In this document: positions 11,112-30,584 of the stretch, one piece after another | How positions within the stretch are numbered: the first letter of the stretch is position 1 | Layout: each line of letters opens with the position of its first letter | DNA from: a virus | Direction: 5' to 3' (one strand) | Length of the DNA: 64,000 nucleotides | Virus record (IMG/VR): IMGVR_UViG_3300029554_000001 | Notes under the pieces: model-generated | The model's input: only the letters and a program-made list of their open reading frames with translations | The model's database searches: none | Told to the model about the DNA's origin: nothing | Made by a program: the position numbers and the translations under genes

Positions 11112-11192
11112 TTAGACTTCCATGAAGCCAGTCAAGACAATCACAGAATAATAAACATTAAATCTGTAGTTTATCTGTTTGATTTTCTACAT
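11112..11192 (-). CDS. mini-ORF A, 26 aa if TAG is read: M-Q(TAG)-KIKQINYRFNVYYSVIVLTGFMEV
   Basis: GGAGA SD 8 nt upstream of ATG-TAG; stop TAA; 65% identical to mini-ORF B2; absent from the ORF track because of TAG at codon 2. Confidence 0.6.
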
Positions 11193-11268
11193 GGTCTTTC
11201 ATCTCCTTTCTTCCTTAAGACAAGGGTTTCATTTATATGAACAGCTTACGGGGCTGGAGTTTTAGACA

Positions 11269-11290
11269 GGAACAGGATTATTCCTGTTCC
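11269..11290. terminator. hairpin GGAACAGGA-tta-TTCCTGTTCC with the gene's stop codon in its loop; T-run on the + strand
   Basis: Overlaps the TAA of 11278..11742; followed on the + strand by TTTTCTTTTT, so it could end the rightward antisense RNA and/or the leftward gene. Confidence 0.5.
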
Positions 11291-11742
11291 TTTTCTTTTT
11301 CTTTGTAAGGCTTAAGGGGAATACGATTACGAGTAGAATATTCGCCAGTATCGTTGTCCATGAGGAATTCGTTTTCACATTCGTCACAGAAGAATTTGGT
11401 TTCAGTTTTAAAATCATCAACTCCTGTTACTCCCCAATTTCCACAATAAGGACAACGAGGTTCACGATACTGACCAAAGTGAATATCTTTCTGATACTCT
11501 TCAGACCGAGGTTCACTCCAAACCTTGACAGAGAAGGTATTGCCAGACTTGTCATCAGGGTCAATCTCTGCCATACAGATATCCTGTTCAACATCCTGAC
11601 CATCACGGACAAAGACGATGTTTACACCATGATATCCTTCCTCTTGCTCGCAATAAATTCTAAATTGACCATTAGGAGTATCAACGAAAGCATGAGTGAA
11701 GCCATTAATCGTGCTCAAACCAATCTTGTTGTACTGTTTCAT
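11278..11742 (-). CDS. hypothetical protein with C-terminal zinc ribbon
   Basis: ORF track frame; ATG 11742 follows GAAGGAG; CPYCG...CDEC. Confidence 0.65.
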   Translation of the reverse strand: MKQYNKIGLSTINGFTHAFVDTPNGQFRIYCEQEEGYHGVNIVFVRDGQDVEQDICMAEIDPDDKSGNTFSVKVWSEPRSEEYQKDIHFGQYREPRCPYCGNWGVTGVDDFKTETKFFCDECENEFLMDNDTGEYSTRNRIPLKPYKEKEKEQE

Positions 11743-11827
11743 AATATAAATCTCCTTCAATTAAAAATAATTTTTTAAAAAACTCTTGACAATATGAGCA
11801 AGTAAGATTGTAGACCTACCTACTTTT

Positions 11828-12376
11828 TTACCAGCCGTAAACATTGCAAACTTGTTTACCAATAGCTCGGGTATACTTGGTAATATCTTTGGGAGTTGCT
11901 TTACCATGATACAATTTCCAACAGAAATTATCAAGCTGGTCAGAAGAGATTTCAGGTTTCACTTCCCTATATAAAGTGTAGTTTGTTCCGTCATGATGAG
12001 TTTGCATAGAGCGAAGATTGTTGTGAGAATCAACCCACCACTTACCATACTCACTACCCATTTTGAAGTTAAGACAGGCTTTAATATTATGCTCATCGAG
12101 AAGAGTATATCCCATTCTACGCCCATTCCAAAGACCAACATCAGCAATCTCGATGATACGACCTTCTGTGGAAATATCGAGGTTACATATTTCATCCTTA
12201 AAGTACATATCATTAAGGTCTAACATCTCTTCATGGAACTTATATTCTTCCCACTCAGAGTAATCAACTCCACATTCATCAAGTCTTTCCTTGATGTCAT
12301 CAATCCAATCATCGAGGTTCAGGTCGTAGTTGCTCCAAACGATACGAGAATTGCTTTTATTATTCTTGGTAGCCAT
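11828..12376 (-). CDS. hypothetical protein
   Basis: ORF track frame; start moved to ATG 12376 (MATKNN), which follows AAAGGAA and clears the upstream stop at 12438. Confidence 0.6.
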   Translation of the reverse strand: MATKNNKSNSRIVWSNYDLNLDDWIDDIKERLDECGVDYSEWEEYKFHEEMLDLNDMYFKDEICNLDISTEGRIIEIADVGLWNGRRMGYTLLDEHNIKACLNFKMGSEYGKWWVDSHNNLRSMQTHHDGTNYTLYREVKPEISSDQLDNFCWKLYHGKATPKDITKYTRAIGKQVCNVYGW

Positions 12377-12437
12377 AATCATAATTCCTTTCTTTTTTAT
12401 CATAATTAGAATGTTTTGATATAGAAAAAGCTGGAGA

Positions 12438-12989
12438 TTATATCCCAGCAAATCCTTTATAAGTTTCAACAATCTTGTTTTTTTCTTCAATGATGTCCTT
12501 AGTTGCTTTTTTTATACTGTAAATAAGATTGTCTCTCAATGTAGGATAGATTTGATATTCATCCCATTTAGCAAGCCAACCATCTTTATCTTCAAGCAAA
12601 GGTTCGGGACAGCATTCAGGAGAAGCATTAAGTGCAATAGAGTCAGTATAACTACCACTTCTCCAAGTGATATAATAACAACCACCCTGTTTGCTAATTG
12701 CGACACTTTCATCATTACCATAATCTCTGTAATAATGAGCATAAAGATTTGTTCTTGAAAAAAGATTGGCTTCTTCAGCGATTTTTACCAAAGAGAGAAT
12801 CTGATTAACAACTACAGTCCACTTAGCTCTACCGATTGCTTCTGTACGAGGAATGTAATATTCCTTAGTATTTTCATGAACAGTCTTAGCATCCTGATAA
12901 CGCTGAAGAAGTTCCATCATTTCGGTATCTTCGGTTTCTTCGCAAGAAATGGTGACGGTCATGCCCTTGTAAGTATTAGTGTTAGTCAT
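12438..12989 (-). CDS. hypothetical protein, tandem paralogue of 13056..13631
   Basis: ORF track; shares MTNT.TY..MTVT..C.E.EDTEMMEL and KDGWL.KWD.Y.IY with its neighbour. Confidence 0.7.
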   Translation of the reverse strand: MTNTNTYKGMTVTISCEETEDTEMMELLQRYQDAKTVHENTKEYYIPRTEAIGRAKWTVVVNQILSLVKIAEEANLFSRTNLYAHYYRDYGNDESVAISKQGGCYYITWRSGSYTDSIALNASPECCPEPLLEDKDGWLAKWDEYQIYPTLRDNLIYSIKKATKDIIEEKNKIVETYKGFAGI

Positions 12990-13055
12990 AGTTATGTTTC
13001 CTTTCTTTTTAAGTTGAAGTGTGAATAGGTGCTTAGTATATAAGAAAACTGGGGA

Positions 13056-13631
13056 TTATTCCCCAGTAATCTCAGAATAATTTTCTTGGATGGAACGAAT
13101 TCTATCCTCGTCAACTTTAATTCTGCGCTCAATTTCTTTCATAAGAGCAGAACGGAAAAGATTATAAATGTTATAATCATCCCATTTAACGAGCCAACCA
13201 TCTTTGTCCTCACCCCATTCAGAAGAATAATACTCTTCATCAGGATTTAAGAAACAGGTACTTGCGATACCCCCGTTTATTGAGCACTTAAGGAAGTAGC
13301 CTTTGTCTTTACCAACGGAGCTATAAGAAAGCCACATGCGGCAACGTTCACCAGTATCGTCCCTACAAAAAGAAATTCTCAAGAAATTATCAATCGTACC
13401 CCTCATATTGAAACTTGTAGCTGTCTCACACAACCCGAGAAGCTGATTGCAAATTTCAGTCCATTTAGCAGAACCAATAGCTTTAATACGAGGAAGGTAA
13501 AATTCCTCAGTGCGCGAGAGTGTAGCCTTAGTGTCATTCATCTTTTTAATGAGTTCCATCATTTCGGTGTCTTCATTCTCCTTGCAAGTAACAGTAACGG
13601 TCATGTTCTCATAAGTCTTAGTGTTAGTCAT
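13056..13631 (-). CDS. hypothetical protein, tandem paralogue of 12438..12989
   Basis: ORF track; see the paralogue. Confidence 0.7.
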   Translation of the reverse strand: MTNTKTYENMTVTVTCKENEDTEMMELIKKMNDTKATLSRTEEFYLPRIKAIGSAKWTEICNQLLGLCETATSFNMRGTIDNFLRISFCRDDTGERCRMWLSYSSVGKDKGYFLKCSINGGIASTCFLNPDEEYYSSEWGEDKDGWLVKWDDYNIYNLFRSALMKEIERRIKVDEDRIRSIQENYSEITGE

Positions 13632-13704
13632 AATACAACCCTTTCTCCCCGTATAGCCGTTAGGTCAGCTTAAATATTAGTTGCTTGTTGTTGCTTAAGG
13701 TTAA

Positions 13705-15321
13705 TTAGTCACGAGGAGTAACACGAACTTTGAGCTTGTTTTTCTTGGCATACTCACAAATAGCTTTGTACTCGTCCTCAGTGATACTACGGTTGGAAGC
13801 TCCTCTTGCCTGAACAATAGCTTCGTTTTCAATTTCAATAGTAACAAGAGACTTGTCAGTATCTTTAGTCTTACGAAGTAAAACAATCAGACAATTTCTC
13901 TTGATTATTCTGCTCAGGTAACTATACACACAATGATTCAACTCAGAACCTTCGCGTTTAACATCATCTGCATTCTTAGGACGAACAATACTGTATGTCT
14001 TATCCTCTGTAACAAAAGGCTTGAAATCTTTATAAGCCTTTTCAAACATCTCAGCCTGTTCCTCGGTAAGCTTGATTTCATAGTTGCGAGAAGTGATATC
14101 ATGAGTCTGCTTAAGGTAAGAGCTGTAAAGAGTAGGCTTGATATCCATGGAAACGCACATATCAAGATAATCACGAAGTTCGCCCATAAACGAGTTTAAA
14201 CTCTTAAAACCTTGGTTGACAGCCTCTTCACAAACATAATCCATAAACTTACCAAAAGTATAGAACTGATAGAATTTGGAATTTCTATAAGAAGTATAAT
14301 TCCTAAGATAAGCAGATAGAGTGCTAGTGAAAACATTTCCACCATACCCACCAATCTGGACATGGTTGAATTGAAATTCTTCGTCCCAATACTTAGCTTT
14401 TTCAATGATATCAAACCATTCCTGATTCGTGTAATGGCAGAAATCCTCTAAAGTTTGTCCACCGTTGTAACCATAATACTGAGTATCCTCGTCTTTCTTA
14501 AAAGCGGAACCAACAATAGACTGCAAATTCATCCAATCATCAAGAATGTTTCTGTCATTGGCTTCTTTATACTCTGCCTTGGTAAGATGAACAAGTTTGT
14601 AAACAGGTTCAGCAGTTTCAATCTTAAGACTAAGAAGAGCGTTTTGAATAGATTTGGGAGCAGTACGGAAGATGATTTCAGCAGATTTATTTCTACTTAA
14701 TGCGAATCTCAATTCTCTGAAAGTATAGTTAACGCCAATATTTTCAACGGGAATATCCCAAACTTGAGAGATAAAAGAAACTGCACTGTCACCCATTCCA
14801 GCTTCATAAACAGGAGCATTACCATCACTAACAGGTTTTGCATTAGGTTCAAGAATAGGAATTAACTGTTCACCATCCATGATAAAGTTGCAAGAGGAAT
14901 TGTTGGTGGCAATTCTATATCTGTAATGACGAGATACAATAGCACCAAGAGGGAAGCAATAGCCAACATTGACCCAGAAATCACCGCCTTTCAAATTAAT
15001 TTCTTTAATGATAAAAGTGTCGGGTAAAAGACAGTCACGATTGACAGGAGCACCAGTGAATAAATCAAAATACCACTGAAAATCAGAACGGTTCGAACTG
15101 TAATGAACAATGACTTTCTTTCCAAGAGGAGTAAAATCACTATTATAGCGATTGTTCTGAACCTTGGTCATTTCAACTCTTGCTTCTTCAAGCTCATCAG
15201 AGAGCTTTTTAATACGAGCGTTAATTTCTTTCTCTTTGGCAGAGATTTCATAGTTGTTGAAAAAGCTCTCATAATCATGAATGGAGGACTTGTAGAAGTT
15301 AGCAATAGCAGTGTTAGACAT
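13705..15321 (-). CDS. PcfJ-like domain protein
   Basis: C-terminal LNHCVYSYLSRIIKRNCLIVLLRK...VTIEIENEAIVQARGASN matches the PcfJ-type H-C-V..Y / TIE / Q.RG pattern; ATG 15321 follows AAAGGAAAA. Confidence 0.6.
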   Translation of the reverse strand: MSNTAIANFYKSSIHDYESFFNNYEISAKEKEINARIKKLSDELEEARVEMTKVQNNRYNSDFTPLGKKVIVHYSSNRSDFQWYFDLFTGAPVNRDCLLPDTFIIKEINLKGGDFWVNVGYCFPLGAIVSRHYRYRIATNNSSCNFIMDGEQLIPILEPNAKPVSDGNAPVYEAGMGDSAVSFISQVWDIPVENIGVNYTFRELRFALSRNKSAEIIFRTAPKSIQNALLSLKIETAEPVYKLVHLTKAEYKEANDRNILDDWMNLQSIVGSAFKKDEDTQYYGYNGGQTLEDFCHYTNQEWFDIIEKAKYWDEEFQFNHVQIGGYGGNVFTSTLSAYLRNYTSYRNSKFYQFYTFGKFMDYVCEEAVNQGFKSLNSFMGELRDYLDMCVSMDIKPTLYSSYLKQTHDITSRNYEIKLTEEQAEMFEKAYKDFKPFVTEDKTYSIVRPKNADDVKREGSELNHCVYSYLSRIIKRNCLIVLLRKTKDTDKSLVTIEIENEAIVQARGASNRSITEDEYKAICEYAKKNKLKVRVTPRD

Positions 15322-15386
15322 AATCAATTTTCCTTTCTTAATTAGACAAAATGTTTGTAGTGACTATATATTAAAGGTAGGAGGGA

Positions 15387-16061
15387 TTAACCCTCCTTTA
15401 CCTTTTTACAGAAAGCTTTGTATTTCTGACTATTGAGGACCCCAAGAATCTTATCTTTAGCTTCGGGCTGACTCTTATAGTAGTCGGAGTTATAGCCAAA
15501 GTGTCTCTGATAAATCATATCAGGATTTTTCTCCAGTAATGCTTCAAGAGGACAATACAGGCTTACAGTAACTTTTTCGCCGTTGTACTTGTAAGGCATT
15601 TTGATATAGATATCACATGAACCATAGCCGCACGTAGGAACATAAGCACTGAATTCGTATTTCTTCAGATAAGGATAAGCCATGAAAATTGCCTCTCTGA
15701 AACTCTTAATAAGATGGGCATTTTGATATTCAAGAGGGACAACATACTGGTAAGCATCTTCGTAATGGTCTCTTTTCCAACCATTACGTTCTTCTGTGAA
15801 TCTAAAATTTCTCTTGATTTCAGGGAGACGTGTGTAATGGGTTTCATAGTAGCTAACATTATTCGAAGATATAGGGATATACTTAATACCACAGACATCT
15901 TTCATTTTGATTTTCTCAGTCACAAGCCAGAGAAGGACATGGGTAGGGAAGCACTTTTCCCACACATCCCATTCTTGGATGAATTTCTTAGCTCTTTCGT
16001 ATCCAACAAATTCATCATTGCGATAAGTACCCTGATATTCAGCATAAATAGCCATAGTCAT
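15387..16061 (-). CDS. hypothetical protein
   Basis: ORF track; AAAGGAA SD. Confidence 0.65.
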   Translation of the reverse strand: MTMAIYAEYQGTYRNDEFVGYERAKKFIQEWDVWEKCFPTHVLLWLVTEKIKMKDVCGIKYIPISSNNVSYYETHYTRLPEIKRNFRFTEERNGWKRDHYEDAYQYVVPLEYQNAHLIKSFREAIFMAYPYLKKYEFSAYVPTCGYGSCDIYIKMPYKYNGEKVTVSLYCPLEALLEKNPDMIYQRHFGYNSDYYKSQPEAKDKILGVLNSQKYKAFCKKVKEG

Positions 16062-16131
16062 AATTCCTTTCTTTTCAATAGATGTGTTGTTGTTTATGTT
16101 TGTTATTTATATTTGAGTTTTGTTCTCTTTT

Positions 16132-16335
16132 TTAATAAGTGGGATTAGCTTTAGAAAGTTCCCAAGATTCTTTTTTCAGCAATGCATGAGCTTCTTCATA
16201 AGCAGTAAAAAATTCTTGGTCAGTTTTGTAATCACCCATGCTATGAACCATTTCTCTGATATAGTCATCCATGAAGGGAATAGATGCTTCAAAATCGACC
16301 AAAGCGCCACTGAGATTTTCTACTAAAGTAATCAT
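16132..16335 (-). CDS. hypothetical protein
   Basis: ORF track frame; ATG 16335 follows AAAGGAG. Confidence 0.6.
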   Translation of the reverse strand: MITLVENLSGALVDFEASIPFMDDYIREMVHSMGDYKTDQEFFTAYEEAHALLKKESWELSKANPTY

Positions 16336-16354
16336 TGTTATATCTCCTTTCTTT

Positions 16355-16555
16355 TTAAGTGTCAATAGCCAAATTCTTTACACAATATCCATACTTTTCT
16401 TCAAGGTTTTCACAAATAGAGTCTTCTATATCTCTTAAAAAACTGGTACAAAGGTCATCGTACTCAAGGTCAACTTCAGATGGAAGGCTTTCACTGGGGA
16501 TATCGTTTTCATCAGTGTCCCATTCAATATTGGTAACGTGAATAATCATATTCAA
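16355..16555 (-). CDS. hypothetical acidic protein
   Basis: ORF track; AAAGGAG SD. Confidence 0.65.
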   Translation of the reverse strand: MNMIIHVTNIEWDTDENDIPSESLPSEVDLEYDDLCTSFLRDIEDSICENLEEKYGYCVKNLAIDT

Positions 16556-16623
16556 TCTCCTTTCTTAAATGAGAGGGAGAGATATTTCGCTCTCCCTCAT
16601 GTTGATTGTTTGAACAGTTGAAA

Positions 16624-17115
16624 TTAAACAGAGGGTCTACCAAGCCATTCAATGTTGTCTGCCTTGATAGTCATACAACCAGTCTCATTGGAAGACGTGA
16701 AATAACTATCAGGAACAAAACCAGTCTTACGAAGGTCTTCCTTAGAAATAGGCTTCCCATTGAGATAGTGCTGGACCTTGGGCTTATTGGGCGTATCGTA
16801 CACACGGAGATACTCATTATACTCACCCTTCTTATTGGTGTGGCAGATGATACGATTGCTGTTATCCTTCCACTGACCCCAAGGAAGCTTAGAAGCAGTA
16901 TCAATAGGGATATTCTTCTCAGCAGCCTTTGCGATTGCCTTCTTGGTATGCTTGTAGTTGACACCGATACGGTAAGTACCGATAACACGCTTAAGAACAG
17001 AGACACCAGCTTTACGACCGAGAGCAGAGAGAGTCACATCGGAAACGTAAGCCATCTTGAAGAACTGACCAGCGGGGATAGAGTTGACCTTGAGGTTGAA
17101 ATAAGTGTTATTCAT
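16624..17115 (-). CDS. hypothetical protein
   Basis: ORF track; AAAGGAAA SD; higher GC and strong codon bias suggest high expression. Confidence 0.7.
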   Translation of the reverse strand: MNNTYFNLKVNSIPAGQFFKMAYVSDVTLSALGRKAGVSVLKRVIGTYRIGVNYKHTKKAIAKAAEKNIPIDTASKLPWGQWKDNSNRIICHTNKKGEYNEYLRVYDTPNKPKVQHYLNGKPISKEDLRKTGFVPDSYFTSSNETGCMTIKADNIEWLGRPSV

Positions 17116-19851: not shown

Positions 19852-19880
19852 TTGACAAGATTGATGTTATGTGTTAATAT
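19852..19880 (+). promoter_or_regulatory. consensus promoter TTGACA-17-TAATAT pointing against the leftward block (cassette B)
   Basis: TTGACA 19852-19857, TGT-TAATAT 19875-19880, followed by the long hairpin 19881-19931. Confidence 0.55.
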
Positions 19881-19952
19881 ATGTATAGATGATAAGAAGA
19901 ATCCTATACTTCTTACTTACCATCTATACATCTTCGTAATTAATGTGTGAGA

Positions 19953-20024
19953 TTAATTACGGTTATAGATAATCATTATCTACATGAGATTGTAGAAATA
20001 ATTAACGTAGAAGATTCTCTACAT
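19953..20024 (-). CDS. mini-ORF B1, 23 aa: M-Q(TAG)-RIFYVNYFYNLM-Q(TAG)-IMIIYNRN
   Basis: GGAGGAAAGGAG upstream of ATG-TAG; C-terminus IYNRN shared with C and D. Confidence 0.55.
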
Positions 20025-20147
20025 GGCTTTCAACTCCTTTCCTCCTTAGACAAGGGACAATTATATAACAGTTTATAGGAACTGATTATATTAGAATAAG
20101 AGAATCGCCTATACAATTCTCTTAGTGAATTATTTTAGTTTAAACTA

Positions 20148-20228
20148 TTAAAGTTCGTATGCTCCGCCAAGAACAATAGAACAATAATAAACATTAAACT
20201 AATAGTTTATTTGTTTGACTGTCTACAT
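20148..20228 (-). CDS. mini-ORF B2, 26 aa: M-Q(TAG)-TVKQINY-Q(TAG)-FNVYYCSIVLGGAYEL
   Basis: AAGGAGA SD then ATG-TAG; paralogue of mini-ORF A. Confidence 0.6.
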
Positions 20229-20292
20229 AGACATTCTCCTTTCCATTTAGCACTAATATATAAACAGTTTATAGGAACTGATTATATCAAGA

Positions 20293-20318
20293 AAGAGCAG
20301 GATTTTATTCCTGCTCTT
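20293..20318. terminator. hairpin AAGAGCAGG-attttatt-CCTGCTCTT with the gene's stop codon in its loop
   Basis: Overlaps the TAA of 20305..20484; T-run on the + strand; same design as 11269-11290. Confidence 0.5.
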
Positions 20319-20484
20319 TTTCTATTGTGTACAAATACTGCTTTCGCTTTTCTTTGTACTGCTTATTGATTTTGTACCGATAATTGCCATGAGTCTTACG
20401 CTGGATTCCTTCACAGCGGTCATAGTACATACCATCGTACTGGGGATACTCTGTGATAGCATTGTTAGGTGTACGTTTAGACAT
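20305..20484 (-). CDS. hypothetical basic 59-aa protein
   Basis: ORF track frame; ATG 20484 is 8 nt after GGAGGG and overlaps the end of 20477..22816. Confidence 0.55.
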   Translation of the reverse strand: MSKRTPNNAITEYPQYDGMYYDRCEGIQRKTHGNYRYKINKQYKEKRKQYLYTIEKEQE

Positions 20485-24141: not shown

Positions 24142-24156
24142 ATTAATTGTTCTCCT

Positions 24157-24715: not shown

Positions 24716-24717
24716 AG

Positions 24718-24882: not shown

Positions 24883-24917
24883 AGTATTATTTCCTTTCTT
24901 AATTCAGATGTTTAAAA

Positions 24918-25220
24918 TTAGATTTCGATTTCAAAGATTTTGCCATCCCAGTTATCATGGTTAGTAGTTTCAGCCCATGCACAAGTACCCTCGAAGTTGT
25001 TCTCGTCATCGAAAATGTCATTATCAATGAGAGAATCAATAGCTTTTTCAAGCTCTTCTTTTGTAGTGACAACATACTTATTATAATCATCTGCATCAAG
25101 ATGCCGACAAGCCTCAAGAAACAAATTGAACAAGTGAATCTGAGCTTTCTCCATGGTATCAAAGAAATAAGGATGACCAATCTCACGTTCGCAAGTATCA
25201 GTGACCATAAACTTCTTCAT
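24918..25220 (-). CDS. hypothetical acidic protein, paralogue of 17195..17497
   Basis: ORF track; see the paralogue. Confidence 0.7.
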   Translation of the reverse strand: MKKFMVTDTCEREIGHPYFFDTMEKAQIHLFNLFLEACRHLDADDYNKYVVTTKEELEKAIDSLIDNDIFDDENNFEGTCAWAETTNHDNWDGKIFEIEI

Positions 25221-25311
25221 AATTTTCTTTCCTTTCTTAAATCACAAATGTTGTTTAGTTCTCATCAATGCAAAAGCAACTTGTATCAGAATCAACTTTA
25301 TTATTGGTTAT

Positions 25312-25340
25312 ATTATACTTTCCTTTCTTAATGGTGTCAA
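25312..25340 (-). promoter_or_regulatory. leftward promoter TTGACA-17-TATAAT
   Basis: Minus strand TTGACA (25340-25335), 17 bp, TATAAT (25317-25312); back-to-back with the rightward promoter at 25369. Confidence 0.65.
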
Positions 25341-25368
25341 GTATTTAAAAAGAAATTTTACAAACTAC

Positions 25369-25397
25369 TTGACAAGTGTTGTGATTTGTGTTATATT
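25369..25397 (+). promoter_or_regulatory. consensus promoter TTGACA-17-TATATT pointing against the leftward block (cassette C)
   Basis: TTGACA 25369-25374, TGT-TATATT 25392-25397, followed by hairpin 25398-25441. Confidence 0.55.
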
Positions 25398-25466
25398 ACA
25401 CTCATCAAGCAAGGTATGTAACTTTTACTTGATGAGTGTAGGTTTTACAATACCTGTAACTGTGGA

Positions 25467-25538
25467 TTAGTTACGATGGTACACGATACGAACGACCGAG
25501 ATTTGTCTATCCATATCAACATGTAAAATTTTCTACAT
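25467..25538 (-). CDS. mini-ORF C, 23 aa: M-Q(TAG)-KILHVDMDRQISVVRIVYHRN
   Basis: AAGGAGA SD then ATG-TAG; stop TAA. Confidence 0.5.
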
Positions 25539-25637
25539 ATTAATTTCTCCTTTCGTGAGTAATTATGTAAACAGGCTTTACAGGAGTCTGGTGTCTTAAG
25601 TAAGACTGGTAGTTAGTAGCTACCAGTCTTTTCTCTT

Positions 25638-26570
25638 TTACTTCTTATAAACCATAAAGGTGAGAAGATAATCACGAATCTTTTCAGCGGGATGTCCTTC
25701 ATGCTCTTCAATCTTGTCCTGAGCAACACGAACAAACTCATCACAGCTCTTATACTGCTTAAGGTTCAGCAGAAAATAGTTGAATGCTTTGGTATCCTCA
25801 CAGTGCTTGTAGCAAGCAGAAATTCCTGCCAACATGCGCTGAGTATAAACCATATCATCCTTCCAACCAGTCCCCTGAAGAACAGCGAACACAAAACGAA
25901 GAGCGTTTTCACCATCGCGTTTAACAATACGATACAGCTCTTCAATTGCATTGATATTGTTATAGCGGTTAATGGTGCTATTGCGATTGGTCTTAACAGT
26001 CAGACCAAATTCCTTTGTGACCTGATTGATAATTACTGCTGTAGGCTTCTTGGCACAAAGTTCAGCTTTATATCTTTCATAGCCACGAAGATTGGTCTTA
26101 CCCTCGTTCTGAGTAGCAAACAAATCTGCTTCTTCTTCCAGAGTAAGATTGATAAATACTTTGCAAGTGATAGCATAGATGGGGAAGCCTTTACTCTGCA
26201 TATAAAGCAGAGCACTCAAGGTATGAGCCCCATCCATAAGAAACAGATGCCAAGTATTACCAACTTTACGAATAGAAGCCGCTTTAATTTCAACCTTGTT
26301 GATATTAAAGTTGTTGGTAATTTTAGCTACTTCATAGTTTTTGGGTTCGCGCTGATAGTGCAAGTCAATTTCAGGCATAAAAAGAGGAATGTCTCTAATA
26401 GCCCAGTTACGACCATCTTCTCTCTTTTCAATCTCCCTTTCCACAGAGAGCTTAAAGGCATAAACGGTCTTGGACTGTTCATTGGTGATTGCTTTGGGCT
26501 TAAGTGCATCGAACAGGACTTCACTGACGGACTTTTCGTTCTTGATGTTGGTGAGATTAATCTTCTTCAT
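25638..26570 (-). CDS. ParB/sulfiredoxin-like nuclease-domain protein (tentative)
   Basis: HYQREP followed by LFLMDGAHTLSAL resembles the ParB N-terminal DGxHR-type core; AAAGGAA SD. Confidence 0.5.
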   Translation of the reverse strand: MKKINLTNIKNEKSVSEVLFDALKPKAITNEQSKTVYAFKLSVEREIEKREDGRNWAIRDIPLFMPEIDLHYQREPKNYEVAKITNNFNINKVEIKAASIRKVGNTWHLFLMDGAHTLSALLYMQSKGFPIYAITCKVFINLTLEEEADLFATQNEGKTNLRGYERYKAELCAKKPTAVIINQVTKEFGLTVKTNRNSTINRYNNINAIEELYRIVKRDGENALRFVFAVLQGTGWKDDMVYTQRMLAGISACYKHCEDTKAFNYFLLNLKQYKSCDEFVRVAQDKIEEHEGHPAEKIRDYLLTFMVYKK

Positions 26571-26613
26571 GATTCTAAATTCCTTTCAAGTTAAAAAAGT
26601 TTGTAGTTATCAC

Positions 26614-26642
26614 TTGACAGATATTATCAAGTGTGCTAAGAT
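26614..26642 (+). promoter_or_regulatory. consensus promoter TTGACA-17-TAAGAT pointing against the leftward block (cassette D)
   Basis: TTGACA 26614-26619, TAAGAT 26637-26642, followed by hairpin 26646-26677. Confidence 0.5.
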
Positions 26643-26693
26643 AAACACAAGTAGAAAGCCTACACTCTCTACTTGTGATGCAATTAATACGGA

Positions 26694-26765
26694 TTAATTA
26701 CGATTGTAAATGATGAAGACTATTATTATAGACCAATAATAGTCAACTGCTAAGATTTTCTACAT
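26694..26765 (-). CDS. mini-ORF D, 23 aa: M-Q(TAG)-KILAVDYYWSIIIVFIIYNRN
   Basis: AAAGGAG SD then ATG-TAG; hydrophobic core; stop TAA. Confidence 0.6.
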
Positions 26766-26892
26766 AGCAAAACTCCTTTCTAATTTAATAATACATTAAT
26801 TCATTGTAGGCTAAATTAATGTGCGAGTGAATAAGTTGGGCTTAAACACTCTATTGAGGGATGGAAGTTATTTTCCATCCCTCTAACAATGT

Positions 26893-27087
26893 TTAAACTC
26901 TTTCAACCTTATAAGGCTTGCAAGCAACAACATCGAAATTGTTTACAAGCCAGTCAGGTTTGGTTTCTTTAGTATTAAGGAATTTACAAACAATGTTTGC
27001 AAGCACTTCACTGTTAAATACAGTTTTTTCCTTCATACTCATTGTAACTGTTACGGATTTTCCGTATTTGTTTGTAATCTTAAACAT
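26893..27087 (-). CDS. hypothetical 64-aa protein
   Basis: ORF track frame; ATG 27087 follows GGAGGTG and overlaps the upstream stop. Confidence 0.55.
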   Translation of the reverse strand: MFKITNKYGKSVTVTMSMKEKTVFNSEVLANIVCKFLNTKETKPDWLVNNFDVVACKPYKVERV

Positions 27088-27394
27088 GCCACACCTCCGT
27101 CTTGATGCCCTTACCGTTATAATAACGACGAGCACCATAATTGGCTCTGTCACTGAAGCACTCAGCACAAGGAATTAATTCCTTACGCTTTCCCTCCTTG
27201 ATTTCCTTGAGTGAAAGATTGAAGCACTGTTCAACCTCACACTTATCACACATCTTACAGGATTTACCCTTGCAAATGTTTTCGCAGAAGTTGTTCTTAA
27301 CTTTGCAGAGATGCTTAATACCCCAAGAGGAATTCATCTCAGCTAAGGTCTGGTCGAGAGTGTAGTTATGACCTATAACACTAATCTTTTTCAT
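27080..27394 (-). CDS. Cys-rich hypothetical protein
   Basis: ORF track; AAAGGAG SD; CENICKGKSCKMCDKCEVEQC. Confidence 0.65.
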   Translation of the reverse strand: MKKISVIGHNYTLDQTLAEMNSSWGIKHLCKVKNNFCENICKGKSCKMCDKCEVEQCFNLSLKEIKEGKRKELIPCAECFSDRANYGARRYYNGKGIKTEVWHV

Positions 27395-27457
27395 TTTACT
27401 TTGACTCCTTTCAAGTCTGTATTAAATTTAATTTTAAATTTGTCTTAAGCTATATGG

Positions 27458-27790
27458 TTAGAAACAAATACGTTTCTTTTTGATTTTGGTAAGCATCCAA
27501 CACCAAGGATTTCCAAAATCATCTTCAAGAGGAGTAACCTTAATGGTTACAAGCACCTCAGTACTAAGATGCTCAAGGATATAATCCAAATTCTTAAGAG
27601 AGAAAACATATCTTTCTTTTGTATCATCTTTAGTGCTTTTTGCGCACCATTTAATGATTTCTTTCAAGCCCGAATCAATCAGGCAGTTCAGGTTCCCATA
27701 AGTGTCAAGCGTTTTATTAAGAGAAGGTGCTTCTAAATGGGTAGGATTGTTGGTGAGAGAGCGAACGGTGTTTTTTAATTTCTTGGACAT
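27458..27790 (-). CDS. hypothetical protein
   Basis: ORF track; AAAGGAAA SD. Confidence 0.65.
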   Translation of the reverse strand: MSKKLKNTVRSLTNNPTHLEAPSLNKTLDTYGNLNCLIDSGLKEIIKWCAKSTKDDTKERYVFSLKNLDYILEHLSTEVLVTIKVTPLEDDFGNPWCWMLTKIKKKRICF

Positions 27791-27826
27791 TTTCTTTATT
27801 TCCTTTCTTTTGTTGATTATTGATAT

Positions 27827-28018
27827 TTACACTTGCTTAAGATACTTAAGGTTTAATTCTAATTTGGAATCCATTGTTAAGCCATTTTCGCGCTTGATTC
27901 TGCCACACAAGTTATTCAAAGCTTGTTTCTCAGAAGAAGCCGTGGTATAACCAGAAAAATGGCAATAATAGTTATACCATCTGGTTACGGGACCATCGTA
28001 GTAATATTTGAGTTTCAT
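27827..28018 (-). CDS. hypothetical 63-aa protein
   Basis: ORF track frame; ATG 28018 follows AAAGGAGGTG. Confidence 0.6.
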   Translation of the reverse strand: MKLKYYYDGPVTRWYNYYCHFSGYTTASSEKQALNNLCGRIKRENGLTMDSKLELNLKYLKQV

Positions 28019-28037
28019 ATATACACCTCCTTTCAAC

Positions 28038-28283
28038 TCAAATAAAATTGAAAACTTTACACTCTTCATGGACATAGCCTCCAAGAACTTCAGGACAGGA
28101 CTGGAAATAACCAGATGCATCCTGAATGTGGATGAGAATGGTATCGTCCATATTTAATGAACCTTTGCGCACTTTTGCTCTAAGCGAGCGACGAATTCGT
28201 TCCCAAATGTTGCACTTTTCTTCGAATACATCATAGATGACTTTGCCATCCTTTTTGACATATCCACTATACCATCTTGTCAT
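28038..28283 (-). CDS. hypothetical 81-aa protein
   Basis: ORF track frame; start moved to ATG 28283 (MTRWYSG); the upstream part of the track ORF overlaps the cassette E promoter and hairpin. Confidence 0.55.
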   Translation of the reverse strand: MTRWYSGYVKKDGKVIYDVFEEKCNIWERIRRSLRAKVRKGSLNMDDTILIHIQDASGYFQSCPEVLGGYVHEECKVFNFI

Positions 28284-28289
28284 AACTAC

Positions 28290-28318
28290 TTGACACCCTC
28301 CTTTTGTTGTGTTATAAT
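28290..28318 (+). promoter_or_regulatory. consensus promoter TTGACA-17-TATAAT pointing against the leftward block (cassette E)
   Basis: TTGACA 28290-28295, TGT-TATAAT 28313-28318, followed by hairpin 28323-28360. Confidence 0.55.
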
Positions 28319-28366
28319 ACCTAATAAGAAAAGTGGTTGACCAATCCACTCTTCTTATTAAATTGA

Positions 28367-28522
28367 TTAGTCTAAGTCTAACTTAGATATATCTATCTGG
28401 AAGAATTCAATCAGCTATTCAACACTTAGGTGTTGCATGTACCAATTAAATTCAAACTCAGAAGTGATATACTACTTCAGAATAGAACCAATCTTTGCTT
28501 TATTACTAAGACTATCCTACAT
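28367..28522 (-). CDS. mini-ORF E, 51 aa with four TAG codons: M-Q(TAG)-DSLSNKAKIGSILK-Q-YITSEFEFNWYMQHLSVE-Q-LIEFFQIDISKLDLD
   Basis: AAAGGAGG SD then ATG-TAG; hydrophilic and unlike the other nine; open only if TAG is read. Confidence 0.4.
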
Positions 28523-28663
28523 GAATTCCTCCTTTCTTTTAACTCGTTAGTGTTGTGACTAACTTGTTATTCGTTATCTTATTGGTCAGATAAGATAGAG
28601 TCTTAGCTGCAACTAAGCACTCTATGAAGGGTAGGAGCATATGTTCCTACCCTTTAACAATGC

Positions 28664-29005
28664 TTAGATGTTATCCCACTGATTAGTGATGAAATTAAAG
28701 CATCGAACAGTTCCACCAATCTTTTTCTCCCAGCGGGGGTTGTTTTTGTTCAATGTATAAGTGGCAAGGCGACTTTTAGCAGCCGTGACAATAATATCAT
28801 ACTGACCGAGTTCCTGAAGAGACTTGATATAGTTCATGAGTTTGACATCATTTTCAAATTCGATGTCAATTGTTCTGGAAGCACTGACAATATCAGTGCA
28901 ATGGTCATCCACACCTTCAGGTTTCCACCCCTGTTCAAAGTGGCTGATAATAGAATCAATATCATAGATGCAGATGCGTTTAACAAACTTAACAGTGTAA
29001 TTCAT
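28664..29005 (-). CDS. hypothetical protein
   Basis: ORF track; AAAGGAAAA SD. Confidence 0.65.
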   Translation of the reverse strand: MNYTVKFVKRICIYDIDSIISHFEQGWKPEGVDDHCTDIVSASRTIDIEFENDVKLMNYIKSLQELGQYDIIVTAAKSRLATYTLNKNNPRWEKKIGGTVRCFNFITNQWDNI

Positions 29006-29034
29006 TTCTTTTTTCCTTTCTGTTTATAAAAGTC

Positions 29035-29063
29035 TTGACAAGCACAATTTCATGTGTTATACT
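29035..29063 (+). promoter_or_regulatory. consensus promoter TTGACA-17-TATACT pointing against the leftward block (cassette F)
   Basis: TTGACA 29035-29040, TGT-TATACT 29058-29063, followed by hairpin 29073-29104; possible end at hairpin GGAGAGAT/ATCTCTCC plus T-rich tail near 29257-29290. Confidence 0.55.
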
Positions 29064-29122
29064 TGTTATTAGAATAAGAGAAGTGCCTACACACCTCTCT
29101 TATTAATAAGCTTTTATTCTTC

Positions 29123-29197
29123 TTAGAAATTATAGTTCTTTAGAATTACAACTACAACGACGTTTAAAGAATAATTGACTGAAATAATCTTCTTCAT
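29123..29197 (-). CDS. mini-ORF F, 24 aa, the only copy without TAG: MKKIISVNYSLNVVVVVILKNYNF
   Basis: AAGGAGG SD; codon 2 is AAG; differs from G2 and H mostly at third codon positions. Confidence 0.65.
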   Translation of the reverse strand: MKKIISVNYSLNVVVVVILKNYNF

Positions 29198-29326
29198 TGT
29201 TTTACCTCCTTAAGAAGATAAAAGCAAACAAGGATGTAGGTCCTTATTCACTACAGAGGAGAGATGTGGGGATATCTCTCCTTCTGTTATATTTGAGTAG
29301 TTTAACGACTTGCTCAGGTCGAGAGG

Positions 29327-29734
29327 TTAGTTCTGATAATCGTCAGAAACTAATACCCATTCTTCCCCATTACTATCAATAAGATGAATGGTTGTTCTAT
29401 CCTCACTGATAGTTACATTCTGAAGATTAGAGAACCAATCCTCAGTTGTTGTGTAGCTATCCTCAACTCCTTTGTTATAACCAGCGTTATATGCACCAGT
29501 TACGTCTTCGTTAGTGAAGACTTCTGCTGGTGCACTTTTACTGTAATCAATATGGTCAAGAATAACAGCGATTCCAATCGCAAGGACAACTACCAGAATA
29601 AACATAGCTCTGGGATTCATGCTCTTATTTTGAGCTATTGCTTCAAGATTAATAACAAGACCGTACACAATCATGATAGCAACAATAGCAATAGCAACAA
29701 TGGTAACATTGGTAATATTGATAAACATCTTCAT
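29327..29734 (-). CDS. membrane protein (two TM helices)
   Basis: ORF track; the SD spacing fits the second ATG (29728) better; NITNVTIVAIAIVAIMIVYGLVI and MFILVVVLAIGIAVIL. Confidence 0.65.
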   Translation of the reverse strand: MKMFINITNVTIVAIAIVAIMIVYGLVINLEAIAQNKSMNPRAMFILVVVLAIGIAVILDHIDYSKSAPAEVFTNEDVTGAYNAGYNKGVEDSYTTTEDWFSNLQNVTISEDRTTIHLIDSNGEEWVLVSDDYQN

Positions 29735-29762
29735 TTCCTTTCTGGTTTTTTACGTCTTTTCC

Positions 29763-29791
29763 TTGACAAACAATTATTTATGTGTTATTAT
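29763..29791 (+). promoter_or_regulatory. consensus promoter TTGACA-17-TATTAT pointing against the leftward block (cassette G)
   Basis: TTGACA 29763-29768, TGT-TATTAT 29786-29791, followed by hairpin 29802-29819. Confidence 0.55.
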
Positions 29792-29837
29792 AATGATGAG
29801 AAGGTTGCCTACACAACCTCCTTAATGCATAATTATC

Positions 29838-29912
29838 TTAGAAGTTGTGATTCTTCAAGATAATCATACTAACTATGCCGAGAACATAGTCAATAAATGT
29901 TATTTTCTACAT
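29838..29912 (-). CDS. mini-ORF G1, 24 aa: M-Q(TAG)-KITFIDYVLGIVSMIILKNHNF
   Basis: AAGGTGA SD then ATG-TAG; stop TAA. Confidence 0.6.
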
Positions 29913-30056
29913 TTTATCACCTTTTCATAATTTAATACTTAATTATAAATTATGTAGGTAATCTATAATTAAGCAGACTGCTTATTGCGACTAAGCACTC
30001 TATAAGATAGAGGAAGATACTCTTATCTTCCTCTACCCTAACAATGCTTATTATGC

Positions 30057-30131
30057 TCAGAAGTTATAATTCTTCAGTATGGCAACTGTTACAACATTAA
30101 GAGCATAATTTACGGAAATCGTTTTCTACAT
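30057..30131 (-). CDS. mini-ORF G2, 24 aa: M-Q(TAG)-KTISVNYALNVVTVAILKNYNF
   Basis: AAAGGAGG SD then ATG-TAG; stop TGA. Confidence 0.6.
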
Positions 30132-30219
30132 GATGATTTCCTCCTTTCCGAGTGCGATTTGGATTACTAAGCACTCTATTAAGCCCACCATCAATTACGA
30201 TGATGGGCTTTAACAATGC

Positions 30220-30390
30220 TCAGATAGGGATACAAATAACATATCCATCATCCAAGAATCGGGGATAAAGCTTATTCTTATTGAGAAGCTTATCTCCAAT
30301 CTCTTTTGCTTCCTCCTCATTAGAGGCAGACACGAATACTGTATCACAACCACTAATGATGGAAGTGATATATTTGACTTTGTATGTCAT
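30220..30390 (-). CDS. hypothetical 56-aa protein (below the ORF-track cutoff)
   Basis: ATG 30390 follows AAAGGAATAAAAG; MTYKVKYITSIISGCDTVFVSASNEEEAKEIGDKLL...; stop TGA. Confidence 0.55.
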   Translation of the reverse strand: MTYKVKYITSIISGCDTVFVSASNEEEAKEIGDKLLNKNKLYPRFLDDGYVICIPI

Positions 30391-30417
30391 TTTCTTTTAT
30401 TCCTTTCTATAAAAGTC

Positions 30418-30446
30418 TTGACAAATACAACTTTATATGTTATACT
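30418..30446 (+). promoter_or_regulatory. consensus promoter TTGACA-17-TATACT pointing against the leftward block (cassette H)
   Basis: TTGACA 30418-30423, TGT-TATACT 30441-30446, hairpin 30457-30486; candidate end at GGGACACTT/GAAGTGTCCC plus TTTTGCTTTGTTT (30650-30686). Confidence 0.6.
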
Positions 30447-30509
30447 TGTTGTTGTAGTAAGAAAGATGCCTATACACCTTTCTTACAAAAAGAGTGATTA
30501 TTAACCTTA

Positions 30510-30584
30510 TCAGAAGTTATAATTCTTTAGGACGAGAATCGTAACAACATTTAAAGTATAATCTATTGTAATTATCTTCTACAT
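30510..30584 (-). CDS. mini-ORF H, 24 aa: M-Q(TAG)-KIITIDYTLNVVTILVLKNYNF
   Basis: AGGAGG SD then ATG-TAG; stop TGA. Confidence 0.6.

Follow-up and report, generated by a model that had tools for sequence, protein, structure and literature searches.

The stretch of DNA analysed here (the window; 64,000 nt of IMG/VR virus record IMGVR_UViG_3300029554_000001) carries minus-strand genes that use the standard code, and the gaps between them hold short ORFs on the same strand. An earlier note had proposed ten such mini-ORFs, and re-translation of the window confirmed the position, strand, and translation of all of them (q denotes TAG):

Mini-ORF A: 11112..11192 (−), 26 aa, MqKIKQINYRFNVYYSVIVLTGFMEV; position 6 is Q or TAG in orthologues
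Mini-ORF B1: 19953..20024 (−), 23 aa, 2 TAG
Mini-ORF B2: 20148..20228 (−), 26 aa, 2 TAG; upstream in a tandem pair, without its own antisense promoter
Mini-ORF C: 25467..25538 (−), 23 aa
Mini-ORF D: 26694..26765 (−), 23 aa
ORF E: 28367..28522 (−), 51 aa, 4 TAG
Mini-ORF F: 29123..29197 (−), 24 aa, MKKI..., without TAG
Mini-ORF G1: 29838..29912 (−), 24 aa
Mini-ORF G2: 30057..30131 (−), 24 aa; upstream in a tandem pair, without H2/H3 (see below) and its own antisense promoter
Mini-ORF H: 30510..30584 (−), 24 aa

A GGAG or GGAGG box lies 5–10 nt upstream of nine of the ten, so the spacing of 6–9 nt that had been proposed is roughly right; the claim of a strong Shine–Dalgarno (SD) sequence at every ORF fails at G1, which has the weaker AAGGTGA. 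Nine ORFs start with ATG-TAG and F with ATG-AAG. SD-led ATG-TAG occurs nine times on a single strand within a span of 20 kb, and a chance origin of the ORF set is excluded. All ORFs but E form one peptide family with the three C-terminal subfamilies that had been described, of 24 aa (..LKNYNF), 23 aa (..IYNRN), and 26 aa (..IVLTGF/LGG); the N-terminal half is common to all classes, and the C-terminal motifs are class-specific and conserved within each class. We rejected E as a divergent family copy: its product is hydrophilic and acidic and has only the M-q start in common with the others, although it is located in the same cassette architecture. The family peptides are basic and rich in Ile, Val, Tyr, and Asn. 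Their description as short and hydrophobic suits the 24-aa class, which is hydrophobic enough for a marginal membrane span, but not the other classes; the hydrophobicity of the 23-aa class is too low for a membrane helix, above all in the C-type peptide (MqKILHVDMDRQ...; GRAVY about −0.2). At the C site, loci L002 and L003 of related phages encode the variant MKKYLYVDMVAqVFAIRVLYNRN.

Along the direction of minus-strand transcription, a cassette consists of a first hairpin (hairpin 1), a second (H2), the strong SD, ATG-TAG with about 22 further codons, a third hairpin (H3), and the next gene. On the plus strand, a host-type sigma-A promoter stands just past H3, and in each gap transcription from this consensus promoter (TTGACA-17-TGnTAnnnT) would run back across the mini-ORF and end at an intrinsic terminator:

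Antisense promoter of A: 11022..11050 (+), sigma-A-type, TTGACA-17-TG-TACAAT
Antisense promoter of B: 19852..19880 (+), reads through B1 and B2
Antisense promoter of C: 25369..25397 (+)
Antisense promoter of D: 26614..26642 (+)
Antisense promoter of E: 28290..28318 (+), 12/12 consensus plus TG
Antisense promoter of F: 29035..29063 (+)
Antisense promoter of G: 29763..29791 (+), reads through G1 and G2
Antisense promoter of H: 30418..30446 (+)
Hairpin 1 of A: 11268..11291 (+), intrinsic terminator with U-tract for the predicted antisense RNA
Hairpin 1 of B: 20292..20319 (+), antisense-RNA terminator
Hairpin 1 of C: 25602..25630 (+), antisense-RNA terminator
Hairpin 1 of D: 26856..26883 (+), CATTGTTA-hairpin-TAGAGTG type, no U-tract
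Hairpin 1 of E: 28628..28653 (+), CATTGTTA-hairpin-TAGAGTG type
Hairpin 1 of F: 29256..29283 (+), antisense-RNA terminator
Hairpin between G2 and G1: 30006..30037 (+), CATTGTTA-hairpin-TAGAGTG type
Hairpin 1 of G, upstream of G2: 30181..30210 (+), CATTGTTA-hairpin-TAGAGTG type
Hairpin 1 of H: 30650..30673 (+), antisense-RNA terminator

Between 11 and 31 kb, eight of the top-scoring promoter matches are plus-strand TTGACA-17-TG-TAnnnT sites, one in each gap, and a matching promoter type precedes co-directional genes at 1070, 2816, and 36815 (+) and 36443 (−). Plus-strand intrinsic terminators lie at 11268, 20290, 25602, 29256, and 30650; hairpin 1 of D, E, G1, and G2 has no plus-strand U-tract. 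With relatives included, the promoter is present in 65 of 75 cassettes, and computation shows that hardly any cassette lacks the predicted antisense promoter and terminator. We found no plus-strand ORF within the antisense units and no sigma-A-like minus-strand promoter dedicated to a mini-ORF; translation of the mini-ORFs would therefore need read-through transcripts of the upstream gene.

The hairpins H2 and H3 flank the SD and the ORF, and their loops are mutually complementary:

H3 of A: 11051..11093 (−), loop TTACTGG (TTACGGG in relatives)
H3 of B1: 19881..19931 (−), loop GTATAGGA
H3 of B2: 20097..20124 (−), loop TATAGG
H3 of C: 25398..25439 (−), loop TTACAGG in relatives; the window copy has a small deletion
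H3 of D: 26646..26677 (−), loop TGTAGGCT
H3 of E: 28323..28359 (−), loop TTGGTCA
H3 of F: 29073..29104 (−), loop TGTAGG
H3 of G1: 29799..29823 (−), loop TGTAGG
H3 of H: 30457..30486 (−), loop TATAGG
H2 of A: 11242..11256 (−), loop CCCGTAA
H2 of B1: 20059..20084 (−), loop TCCTATA
H2 of B2: 20255..20280 (−), loop CCTATA
H2 of C: 25572..25590 (−), loop CCTGTAA
H2 of D: 26793..26822 (−), loop AGCCTACA
H2 of E: 28575..28597 (−), loop TGACCAA
H2 of F: 29227..29248 (−), loop CCTACA
H2 of G1: 29938..29973 (−), loop CCTACA
H2 of H: 30611..30638 (−), loop CCTATA

The loop pairs form at least seven co-varying classes (CCTACA/TGTAGG, CCTATA/TATAGG, CCTGTAA/TTACAGG, CCCGTAA/TTACGGG, CCCACA/TGTGGG, ACCCGTAT/ATACGGGT, and CCGTG/CACGG), and the E cassette has a further pair, TGACCAA/TTGGTCA. 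The longest upstream complement of the H3 loop averages 6.3 nt versus 3.75 ± 0.2 in shuffles, and the H3 covariation score is 0.69 versus 0.29 (none of 500 shuffles reached 0.69), although these shuffle statistics overstate independence because the sequences are related by descent. Of the cells of the H3 stem, 89% are paired, and both sides change in 12 of 13 pairs. Computation thus shows H3 to be a co-varying hairpin favored on the mRNA strand (67 of 71 regions), which is rich in G-U pairs (129 vs. 17 in the strand-asymmetry comparison), whereas hairpin 1 is favored on the antisense strand (47 regions, with the mRNA strand favored in 23).

We compared the window with related IMG/VR phage contigs of 108–220 kb; across the window and loci L001–L050, all 75 instances (69 unique ORFs) retain frame and length class. 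In a coding test on 40 unique sequences, the annotated frame gave the lowest pooled pN/pS (0.28 and 0.39 vs. 0.47–1.16 in the other five), with pS about 0.7; leucine codon-family switches occur between orthologues, as do swaps of TAG with CAA or CAG (position 12 of C, position 6 of A). Computation thus shows purifying selection on the peptide in the frame that encodes it. The earlier note had argued for selection on the peptide rather than on RNA alone from third-position differences among F, G2, and H. The bias is present between F and G2 (4/3/13 differences by codon position) but not between F and H (9/1/9) or G2 and H (8/2/8), and selection on RNA is evident as well, in the co-varying H3 stem, in hairpins whose stability differs between the strands, and around the start codon, where extra structure makes folding stronger than in synonymous resamples. 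ATG-TAG may be held in part by this local structure.

TAG is a sense codon in the mini-ORFs, interchangeable with CAA/CAG, as computation shows. Codon 2 of the 69 unique ORFs is TAG in 57, AAG in nine, AAA in three, and CAA or CAG in none, and their internal Gln-type codons comprise 25 TAG, 11 CAA, and three CAG. By comparison, 53 neighboring minus-strand genes contain 210 CAA/CAG and no in-frame TAG. Copies of the F and MKTII types contain no TAG anywhere, and an amber gate is therefore not universal. No suppressor tRNA was found in the window or in the related loci retrieved.

Within IMG/VR, 43 stretches match the pattern GAAAGGAG-N5-10-ATGTAGARAAT, nearly all on contigs of 150–220 kb from one small metagenome set, and these matches are this phage clade. 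The same 18.5-base pattern has 44 matches in 596 Gb of bacterial genomes, about the estimated chance expectation, and 43 of them hold ORFs unlike the mini-ORF family. The family is confined to this clade. Neither the family nor the cassette matched known peptide or RNA families. The B2-type cassette occurs only in some related genomes and cassette copy number varies, genes between cassettes differ among close relatives, and some copies are decayed (L017 is frameshifted, L048 has a 16-aa remnant); neither a transposase or integrase nor terminal repeats were seen.

Given the nearly constant ATG-TAG start, the facing predicted antisense RNA gene, and the co-varying hairpin loops, peptide production looks tied to the genetic-code switch of this large phage, which recodes a stop codon. 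The reading we favor, which has about an even chance of being right, is that the cassettes are type I toxin–antitoxin-like loci combining a translated peptide, a cis-antisense RNA, kissing loops, and an amber gate; the transcripts, the peptide, and any toxicity are what we infer from the DNA. Under the host code, in which TAG is a stop, ribosomes loaded on the SD would terminate at codon 2. The predicted plus-strand RNA (about 230 nt, or 450 nt across tandem pairs, ending at hairpin 1) would be a full complement of H3, ORF, SD, and H2; made by host RNA polymerase from the start of infection, it would pair with the mini-ORF mRNA. Starting from loop–loop kissing contacts of H2 and H3, this pairing would either hide the SD or make the duplex accessible to RNase III. 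Kissing of H2 with H3 inside the mRNA could form a 5′–3′ lock comparable to those of the hok and aapA1 mRNAs. Once amber suppression is on, and if antisense RNA falls, the peptide would be made, so that the amber gate would restrict translation to the recoded phase. The peptides would be late effectors, harmful if made prematurely, and would act in trans, with the membrane as target or aggregation as the most plausible routes.

The likeness to type I toxins drawn in the earlier note gains real support from the predicted antisense sigma-A promoter and terminator and the co-varying loops, but not from homology to a known toxin family: Pfam and NCBIfam gave no match, par/Fst-type and prophage type I toxins included. 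The Ibs/Sib loci of Escherichia coli (QUAD/SIB repeats), reportedly described as type I systems by Fozo and colleagues in Mol Microbiol in 2008, are likewise multi-copy intergenic repeats encoding a very short hydrophobic peptide (18–19 aa) with its own SD and a cis-antisense sRNA that overlaps it fully and is made from a constitutive opposite-strand promoter, as predicted here. They have no sequence similarity to the phage cassettes, which differ in lying inside a transcription block of a phage, in the ATG-TAG start within a TAG-recoding genome, in the two flanking hairpins with complementary loops, and in that toxicity is putative. The par locus (Fst RNA I/RNA II) of Enterococcus pAD1 and the prophage type I systems of Bacillus and Clostridioides resemble the cassettes in Firmicute-style SD and sigma-A promoters, in toxin and antitoxin transcripts that converge on a common terminator hairpin, and in their location on mobile elements or prophages, but their toxins are longer (30–60 aa) with a clear transmembrane helix; we know of no amber gate in any of them. 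In aapA1/IsoA1 of Helicobacter pylori, two kissing loops and a 5′–3′ lock operate (PMC5416894). There, as in hok/sok, the peptide mRNA is kept inactive by a long-distance 5′–3′ interaction, as proposed here, and the antisense RNA makes contact at two kissing loops before an extended duplex forms, with cognate specificity from loop sequences. Unlike in those systems, the complementary loops of the cassettes lie on the same strand around the whole SD–ORF unit, the predicted antisense RNA spans the full ORF, 3′ processing is not known to take part, and the amber codon would be a second lock. Lysis and transmembrane genes of recoded phages show an enrichment of recoded stops, for which a block on premature expression has been proposed as the role (Borges et al., 10.1101/2021.08.26.457843). 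These genes too have in-frame recoded stops where early expression would be harmful and await the code switch; they are, however, ordinary late genes, whereas the cassettes have TAG at codon 2 of 23–26-aa ORFs in an otherwise TAG-free block and are paired with predicted antisense RNA genes. The text of Borges et al. contains no occurrence of antisense RNAs, small ORFs, or intergenic elements.

The very different payload of E in the same cassette suggests that the cassette is a general expression device and not proof of a toxin. This hydrophilic payload, the nonhydrophobic C-type peptides, and the lack of homology to any toxin family would suit ordinary late small proteins that are not toxins, such as assembly, host-takeover, or exclusion factors; the main effect of the opposite-strand promoters would then be to insulate leftward transcription, or to attenuate it, by firing head-on against it, rather than to drive dedicated antitoxin genes, and eight strong head-on promoters in one transcription block would indeed interfere with it. 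We consider this unlikely, since terminators just before the upstream gene bound the antisense units, which therefore cover the mini-ORF and little else, since loop–loop covariation points to a specific RNA–RNA mechanism, and since TAG makes up 14 of 19 Gln-type codons in the ten ORFs, far above the 52 of 235 in the recoded plus-strand block.

A cis-acting leader peptide, by which the mini-ORF senses the code switch and alters expression of the downstream gene, seems to us quite unlikely. Ribosomes would leave at codon 2 when TAG is a stop, and when TAG is Gln their passage through the ORF would remodel H2/H3 and so alter termination, processing, or stability of the minus-strand mRNA. Every cassette is indeed followed immediately by a co-directional gene, selection maintains H3 as a G-U-rich mRNA-strand hairpin, the 3′ end of the ORF, stop codon included, pairs with the nucleotides directly after it, and a 23–26-aa peptide with C-termini conserved per class fits wholly within the exit tunnel. 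The stop codon, however, is about 13–27 nt (by eye) from the H3 base, out of reach of a terminating ribosome, and most H3 copies lack a proper minus-strand U-tract. A shared N-terminal half with differing C-terminal motifs is the opposite of known arrest peptides, and neither the tandem copies (B2–B1, G2–G1) nor a conserved antisense promoter and terminator, for which a leader has no need, fit this scheme.

A role as mobile or recombinogenic regulatory cassettes, in which a promoter and stem-loops serve to shuffle the genes of a hyperplastic region and the ORF is incidental, would suit the varying copy number, the differing intervening genes, and the decayed copies, but is very improbable, as an incidental ORF would not hold its frame in 69 unique variants at such pN/pS, SD and ATG are invariant, and no mobility genes or terminal repeats were seen. 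Such a gene-shuffling role is said to have been proposed for the PeSL (promoter-early stem-loop) cassettes of T4-type phages, reportedly the subject of work by Arbiol and colleagues in 2010. These are similarly repeated units of a sigma-70-type promoter and a stem-loop, interspersed among the small variable genes of a hyperplastic early region; their promoters, however, are co-oriented with the genes and they contain no ORF, whereas the cassettes described here have an antisense promoter and encode a conserved peptide.

The ten minus-strand mini-ORFs (A, B1, B2, C, D, E, F, G1, G2, and H; window 11112–30584) were recovered with the coordinates and translations given to them in an earlier note, TAG being read as glutamine, and it was again found that they escape standard-code six-frame translation. 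ORFs of 72–81 nt also generally fall below the length cut-offs of common gene callers; therefore, such peptide families may be systematically absent from phage annotations. The view that the ten form one family stands for nine of them, which comprise three length and C-terminal classes (24 aa, 23 aa including the C-type, and 26 aa), but not for E, a different, hydrophilic ORF of 51 aa with four TAGs that is kept in relatives with amino-acid changes. [quoted passage not shown] The start is ATG-TAG in nine of the ten and ATG-AAG in F, and SD-led ATG-TAG is restricted to the gaps holding these ORFs (nine on one strand within 20 kb).

The phage has a low GC content (about 35%). INPHARED contains no close or near-identical relative of it, and protein-level matches there were confined to a PcfJ-like domain. 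The minus-strand block (about 4.3–36.8 kb) consists of tightly packed SD-led genes, including those for PcfJ-like, DUF932, and DUF6551 proteins. PHROGs annotation of the neighboring genes gave almost nothing other than homing endonucleases. The DUF6551 protein is 94–98% identical on seven IMG/VR contigs of 108–220 kb, and a DNA-pattern scan of IMG/VR added about ten further contigs of the same clade. Nearly all IMG/VR stretches with an 18.5-base SD/ATG-TAG pattern belong to this clade. The same pattern occurs in 44 stretches of 596 Gb of bacterial genomes, which is about the estimated chance rate, and in 43 of these the ORFs are unrelated to the family; the genome scan was therefore rejected as a pointer to bacterial homes or a host. 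Its one true match, L051, is a 28-kb contig, probably of phage origin, binned with a Bacteroidaceae MAG, and this sole match in the genome collection is at odds with the SD use and sigma-A-type promoters, which suggest a Bacillota host.

Comparison of the copies argues firmly that the peptide is under selection, as had been proposed. Across the window and the fetched loci the frame is kept in 75 instances (69 unique ORFs), with length kept and many amino-acid variants, and two copies are decayed, one frameshifted (L017) and one reduced to a 16-aa remnant (L048). Pooled Nei–Gojobori pN/pS in frame is 0.28 for the 24-aa class (19 unique sequences) and 0.39 for the 23-aa class (21 unique sequences) versus 0.47–1.16 in the other five frames, the second-lowest value belonging to the reverse frame that shares wobble positions. 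The original argument from third codon positions in F, G2, and H holds for F and G2 only, and it is the larger data set that supports the claim. A plus-strand ORF as the cause of the 3-periodicity was rejected because all plus-strand frames contain stops and reverse-frame pN/pS is 0.47–1.04.

The 53 genes of the minus-strand block contain 210 CAA/CAG codons, no in-frame TAG, and one TAG stop. Many ORFs of the plus-strand block are continuous only with TAG as a sense codon, which accounts for 52 of their 235 Gln-type codons. The mini-ORFs show in-frame TAG as sense alongside other genes that need TAG read-through, and in the ten ORFs of the window TAG makes up 14 of 19 Gln-type codons, more than in the recoded block and compared with none in the surrounding genes. 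Codon 2 of the unique ORFs is TAG in 57, Lys in 12, and never CAA/CAG; among their internal Gln-type codons, 25 of 39 are TAG. Because TAG is swapped with CAA/CAG between orthologs (C position 12, A position 6), TAG is decoded in the mini-ORFs, most likely as Gln. A single start-site RNA motif cannot explain the internal TAGs because their positions vary; by analogy, these can be explained by the preference for recoded codons reported for lysis and transmembrane genes in recoded phages (10.1101/2021.08.26.457843). Local structure around the AUG-UAG start is more stable than that of synonymous resamples (−4.63 vs. −3.39 ± 0.18). No suppressor tRNA was found in the window or in 30 fetched loci.

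Each gap contains, on the plus strand just past the hairpin 3′ of the ORF (H3), a consensus sigma-A promoter (TTGACA-17-TGnTAnnnT) directed back through the ORF.

Predicted antisense promoters of the cassettes
11022, plus strand, sigma-A promoter
19852, plus strand, sigma-A promoter
25369, plus strand, sigma-A promoter
26614, plus strand, sigma-A promoter
28290, plus strand, sigma-A promoter
29035, plus strand, sigma-A promoter
29763, plus strand, sigma-A promoter
30418, plus strand, sigma-A promoter

The same promoter type also precedes co-directional genes (1070, 2816, and 36815 on the plus strand and 36443 on the minus strand), which makes its antisense orientation in the cassettes meaningful. 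Of the 75 cassettes of the clade, 65 have it, six of the ten exceptions being upstream members of tandem pairs (B2- and G2-type). In A, B, C, F, and H, a plus-strand intrinsic terminator with a U-tract is placed immediately ahead of the upstream gene. Given promoter, terminator, and no ORF in the plus-strand units, we predict a noncoding RNA that would measure about 230 nt in single cassettes and about 450 nt where it runs through B1 and B2 or G1 and G2, and whose sequence would be complementary to hairpins, ORF, and SD alike. A search of both strands of the cassettes against Rfam gave no family. No sigma-A promoter dedicated to the mini-ORF mRNA was found: CTGTTnAnATAAn, conserved 3′ of the hairpin that lies 5′ of the SD (H2) in the A, B, and C classes, has no −35 element. 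In cassettes D, E, G1, and G2 only, a motif consisting of CATTGTTA, a GC-rich hairpin without a plus-strand U-tract, and (A)TAGAGTGCTTAG comes after the upstream gene's stop codon; it could act as a signal for a phage polymerase or as a site of processing.

Motif CATTGTTA-hairpin-(A)TAGAGTGCTTAG
26853..26898, minus strand
28624..28669, minus strand
30002..30053, minus strand
30178..30225, minus strand

The H3 stem is 89% paired with compensatory changes in 12 of 13 pairs, and its loop is invariant in the main class (TRTAGG). H2, a small hairpin 30–45 nt 5′ of the SD, has a loop reverse-complementary to that of H3, and these loops co-vary between at least seven cassette classes.

H2/H3 loop classes
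CCTACA/TGTAGG
CCTATA/TATAGG
CCTGTAA/TTACAGG
CCCGTAA/TTACGGG
CCCACA/TGTGGG
ACCCGTAT/ATACGGGT
CCGTG/CACGG

The covariation score of H3 is 0.69 versus 0.29 in shuffles and 0.15–0.29 in slid registers, and the longest complement of the H3 loop averages 6.3 nt versus 3.75 ± 0.2 in shuffles, shuffle statistics being generous because the sequences share descent. With independently predicted hairpins the complement is 4.8 in cognate versus 3.1 in noncognate pairs. The loops of E are also complementary (TGACCAA/TTGGTCA); therefore, the cassette architecture is shared even with a different payload. The idea that the H2 loop pairs with the AUG-UAG start was rejected because AUGUAG is also kept in classes whose loops have different sequences. 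In a symmetric comparison of the two strands, 67 of 71 regions have an H3 that is stabler on the mRNA strand (−20.5 vs. −15.7 kcal/mol), hairpin 1, beside the upstream gene, is stabler on the antisense strand in 47 regions versus 23 with the opposite preference, and the strand-asymmetry comparison of G-U pairs gave 129 versus 17. Such asymmetry would be expected of a locus transcribed on both strands in which each hairpin works in the RNA to which it belongs.

Judged from sequence, the anatomy of the cassettes matches type I toxin–antitoxin logic in its small SD-led peptide gene, predicted overlapping antisense sRNA, structured mRNA, and predicted loop–loop recognition, and the putative antisense gene, which the earlier note had not seen, adds to the type I toxin likeness that it proposed. 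The layout is close to that of Ibs/Sib, and the RNA mechanics are close to those of aapA1/IsoA1 and hok/sok (PMC5416894), the predicted pairing providing a 5′–3′ interaction and loop–loop recognition of the hok/aapA1 type; beyond all three, the cassettes would add an amber gate at codon 2. The antisense sRNA, overlapping the peptide gene, would be made from a constitutive host-type promoter, and early in infection the ORF would be doubly silent, since RF1 would terminate at codon 2 and the antisense RNA would mask the SD or direct cleavage. The peptide would be made only after the code switch. We tentatively propose, as a possibility, that the switch in genetic code is the translational trigger for antisense-guarded peptides and that the cassettes are code-switch-coupled effectors. 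With TAG at codon 2, a cassette read in the host code would be no more than a start-stop dummy, and the phage code would turn it into a peptide gene; the co-varying kissing loops would give each copy cognate antisense control. The effectors might act late, as membrane or lysis-timing peptides, or might be a safeguard triggered only in cells with active amber suppression.

No family peptide matched Pfam or NCBIfam at E ≤ 10, and assignment to a known toxin family fails by homology. The 24-aa class (GRAVY 0.5–1.3), with about 16 residues in its hydrophobic core, might just suffice as a membrane span; the 23-aa class (GRAVY −0.3 to 0.8) is less hydrophobic, carries D8/R17, and is rich in beta-branched and aromatic residues, and C-type copies are not hydrophobic. 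It is unlikely that the mini-ORFs encode nontoxic late small proteins with insulating antisense promoters. That they are leader peptides sensing the code switch is rather improbable: the distance from stop to H3 is about 13–27 nt (by eye), the C-terminal motifs differ between classes, and most copies have no U-tract terminator after H3, so that neither the close stop or stall site nor the conserved C-terminal arrest motif of a ribosome-arrest or attenuator leader was found. Gene content between cassettes varies among close relatives. We consider it very improbable that the cassettes are recombinogenic. An integron attC-like or terminal-inverted-repeat reading of the complementary motifs was rejected because these lie in loops of separate hairpins with unrelated stems and no integrase or transposase was seen.

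Stop-codon recoding in phages has been proposed to act as a timing gate on expression (10.1101/2021.08.26.457843), and cassettes of about 300 nt would be a compact test bed for it. The combination of a strong SD, ATG-TAG, a short ORF, and a matched antisense RNA could be moved into reporters that would measure the timing and completeness of the code switch during infection. The cassettes, about eight in number, would bring type I toxin–antitoxin-like control to a large phage genome, with a new design in which complementary co-varying loops bracket the whole ORF. If code-switch coupling is true, they would be the first natural device, small and portable, to report on the reassignment of a stop codon.

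Several further features were observed in the window. The plus-strand block opens at 36.8 kb with a gene for a YonO/RdRP-like two-barrel RNA polymerase (37727..39742, plus strand; PF05183, E = 3.6e-11), directly after the divergent promoter pair 36443(−)/36815(+); its stop-to-stop frame extends upstream through one TAG, to 672 codons. The recoded block also contains two homing-endonuclease-like ORFs, 48336..49055 (matching PHROG 314 and 7168) and 49719..50570, both on the plus strand, with six and five in-frame TAGs, respectively. Adjoining them is a 277-aa ORF (50571..51614) without a PHROG match, possibly a terminase fragment. The TAGs of the two homing-endonuclease-like ORFs fit a published note that homing endonucleases of recoded phages carry in-frame stops. 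On the minus strand, 25200..25345 is the remnant of a gene kept whole by relatives (GTATAATATGA...), its ATG changed to ATA and most of it deleted; a perfect "promoter" (TTGACA-17-TATAAT; 25340..25312, minus) overlaps the SD and start of the gene intact in relatives. A full-length but sub-threshold match to the type II hammerhead ribozyme (RF02276; 31.2 bits vs. a gathering score of 37, E = 0.0075 over 21 kb) lies at 30916..30992 (minus) in a 123-nt gap between two minus-strand ORFs, with the CUGAUGA and CGAAAC core boxes and the GUC site intact.

Three other SD-led ATG-TAG starts were noted. A 26-codon ORF that is not a family member (498..578, plus) lies inside a cluster of tandem repeats (389..862; a 15-mer ×3, a 21-mer ×2.3, AGTCGATATATCGGT ×2.7, and TCATTTTGATA ×4.7) with an iteron-like look, in a noncoding stretch 5′ of the sigma-A promoter at 1070. 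At 5293..5307 (minus), in a 210-nt gap (5114..5322), a strong SD (GAAAGGAGG) precedes a four-codon ORF, ATG-TAG-ATT-CCT-TGA, followed by a second SD and a terminator hairpin. An antisense promoter is absent, and the site may have arisen by decay of a cassette or by chance. The third, on a different 29-kb viral contig (IMGVR_UViG_3300045988_165501; L042, 1566..1679), encodes 37 aa (MqKIVHMNIIVSYVFTFLCGCIFTILGIIYLASKGPK) with a clear transmembrane segment and has no antisense promoter nearby; ATG-TAG starts may thus occur on small membrane proteins in other recoded phages too.
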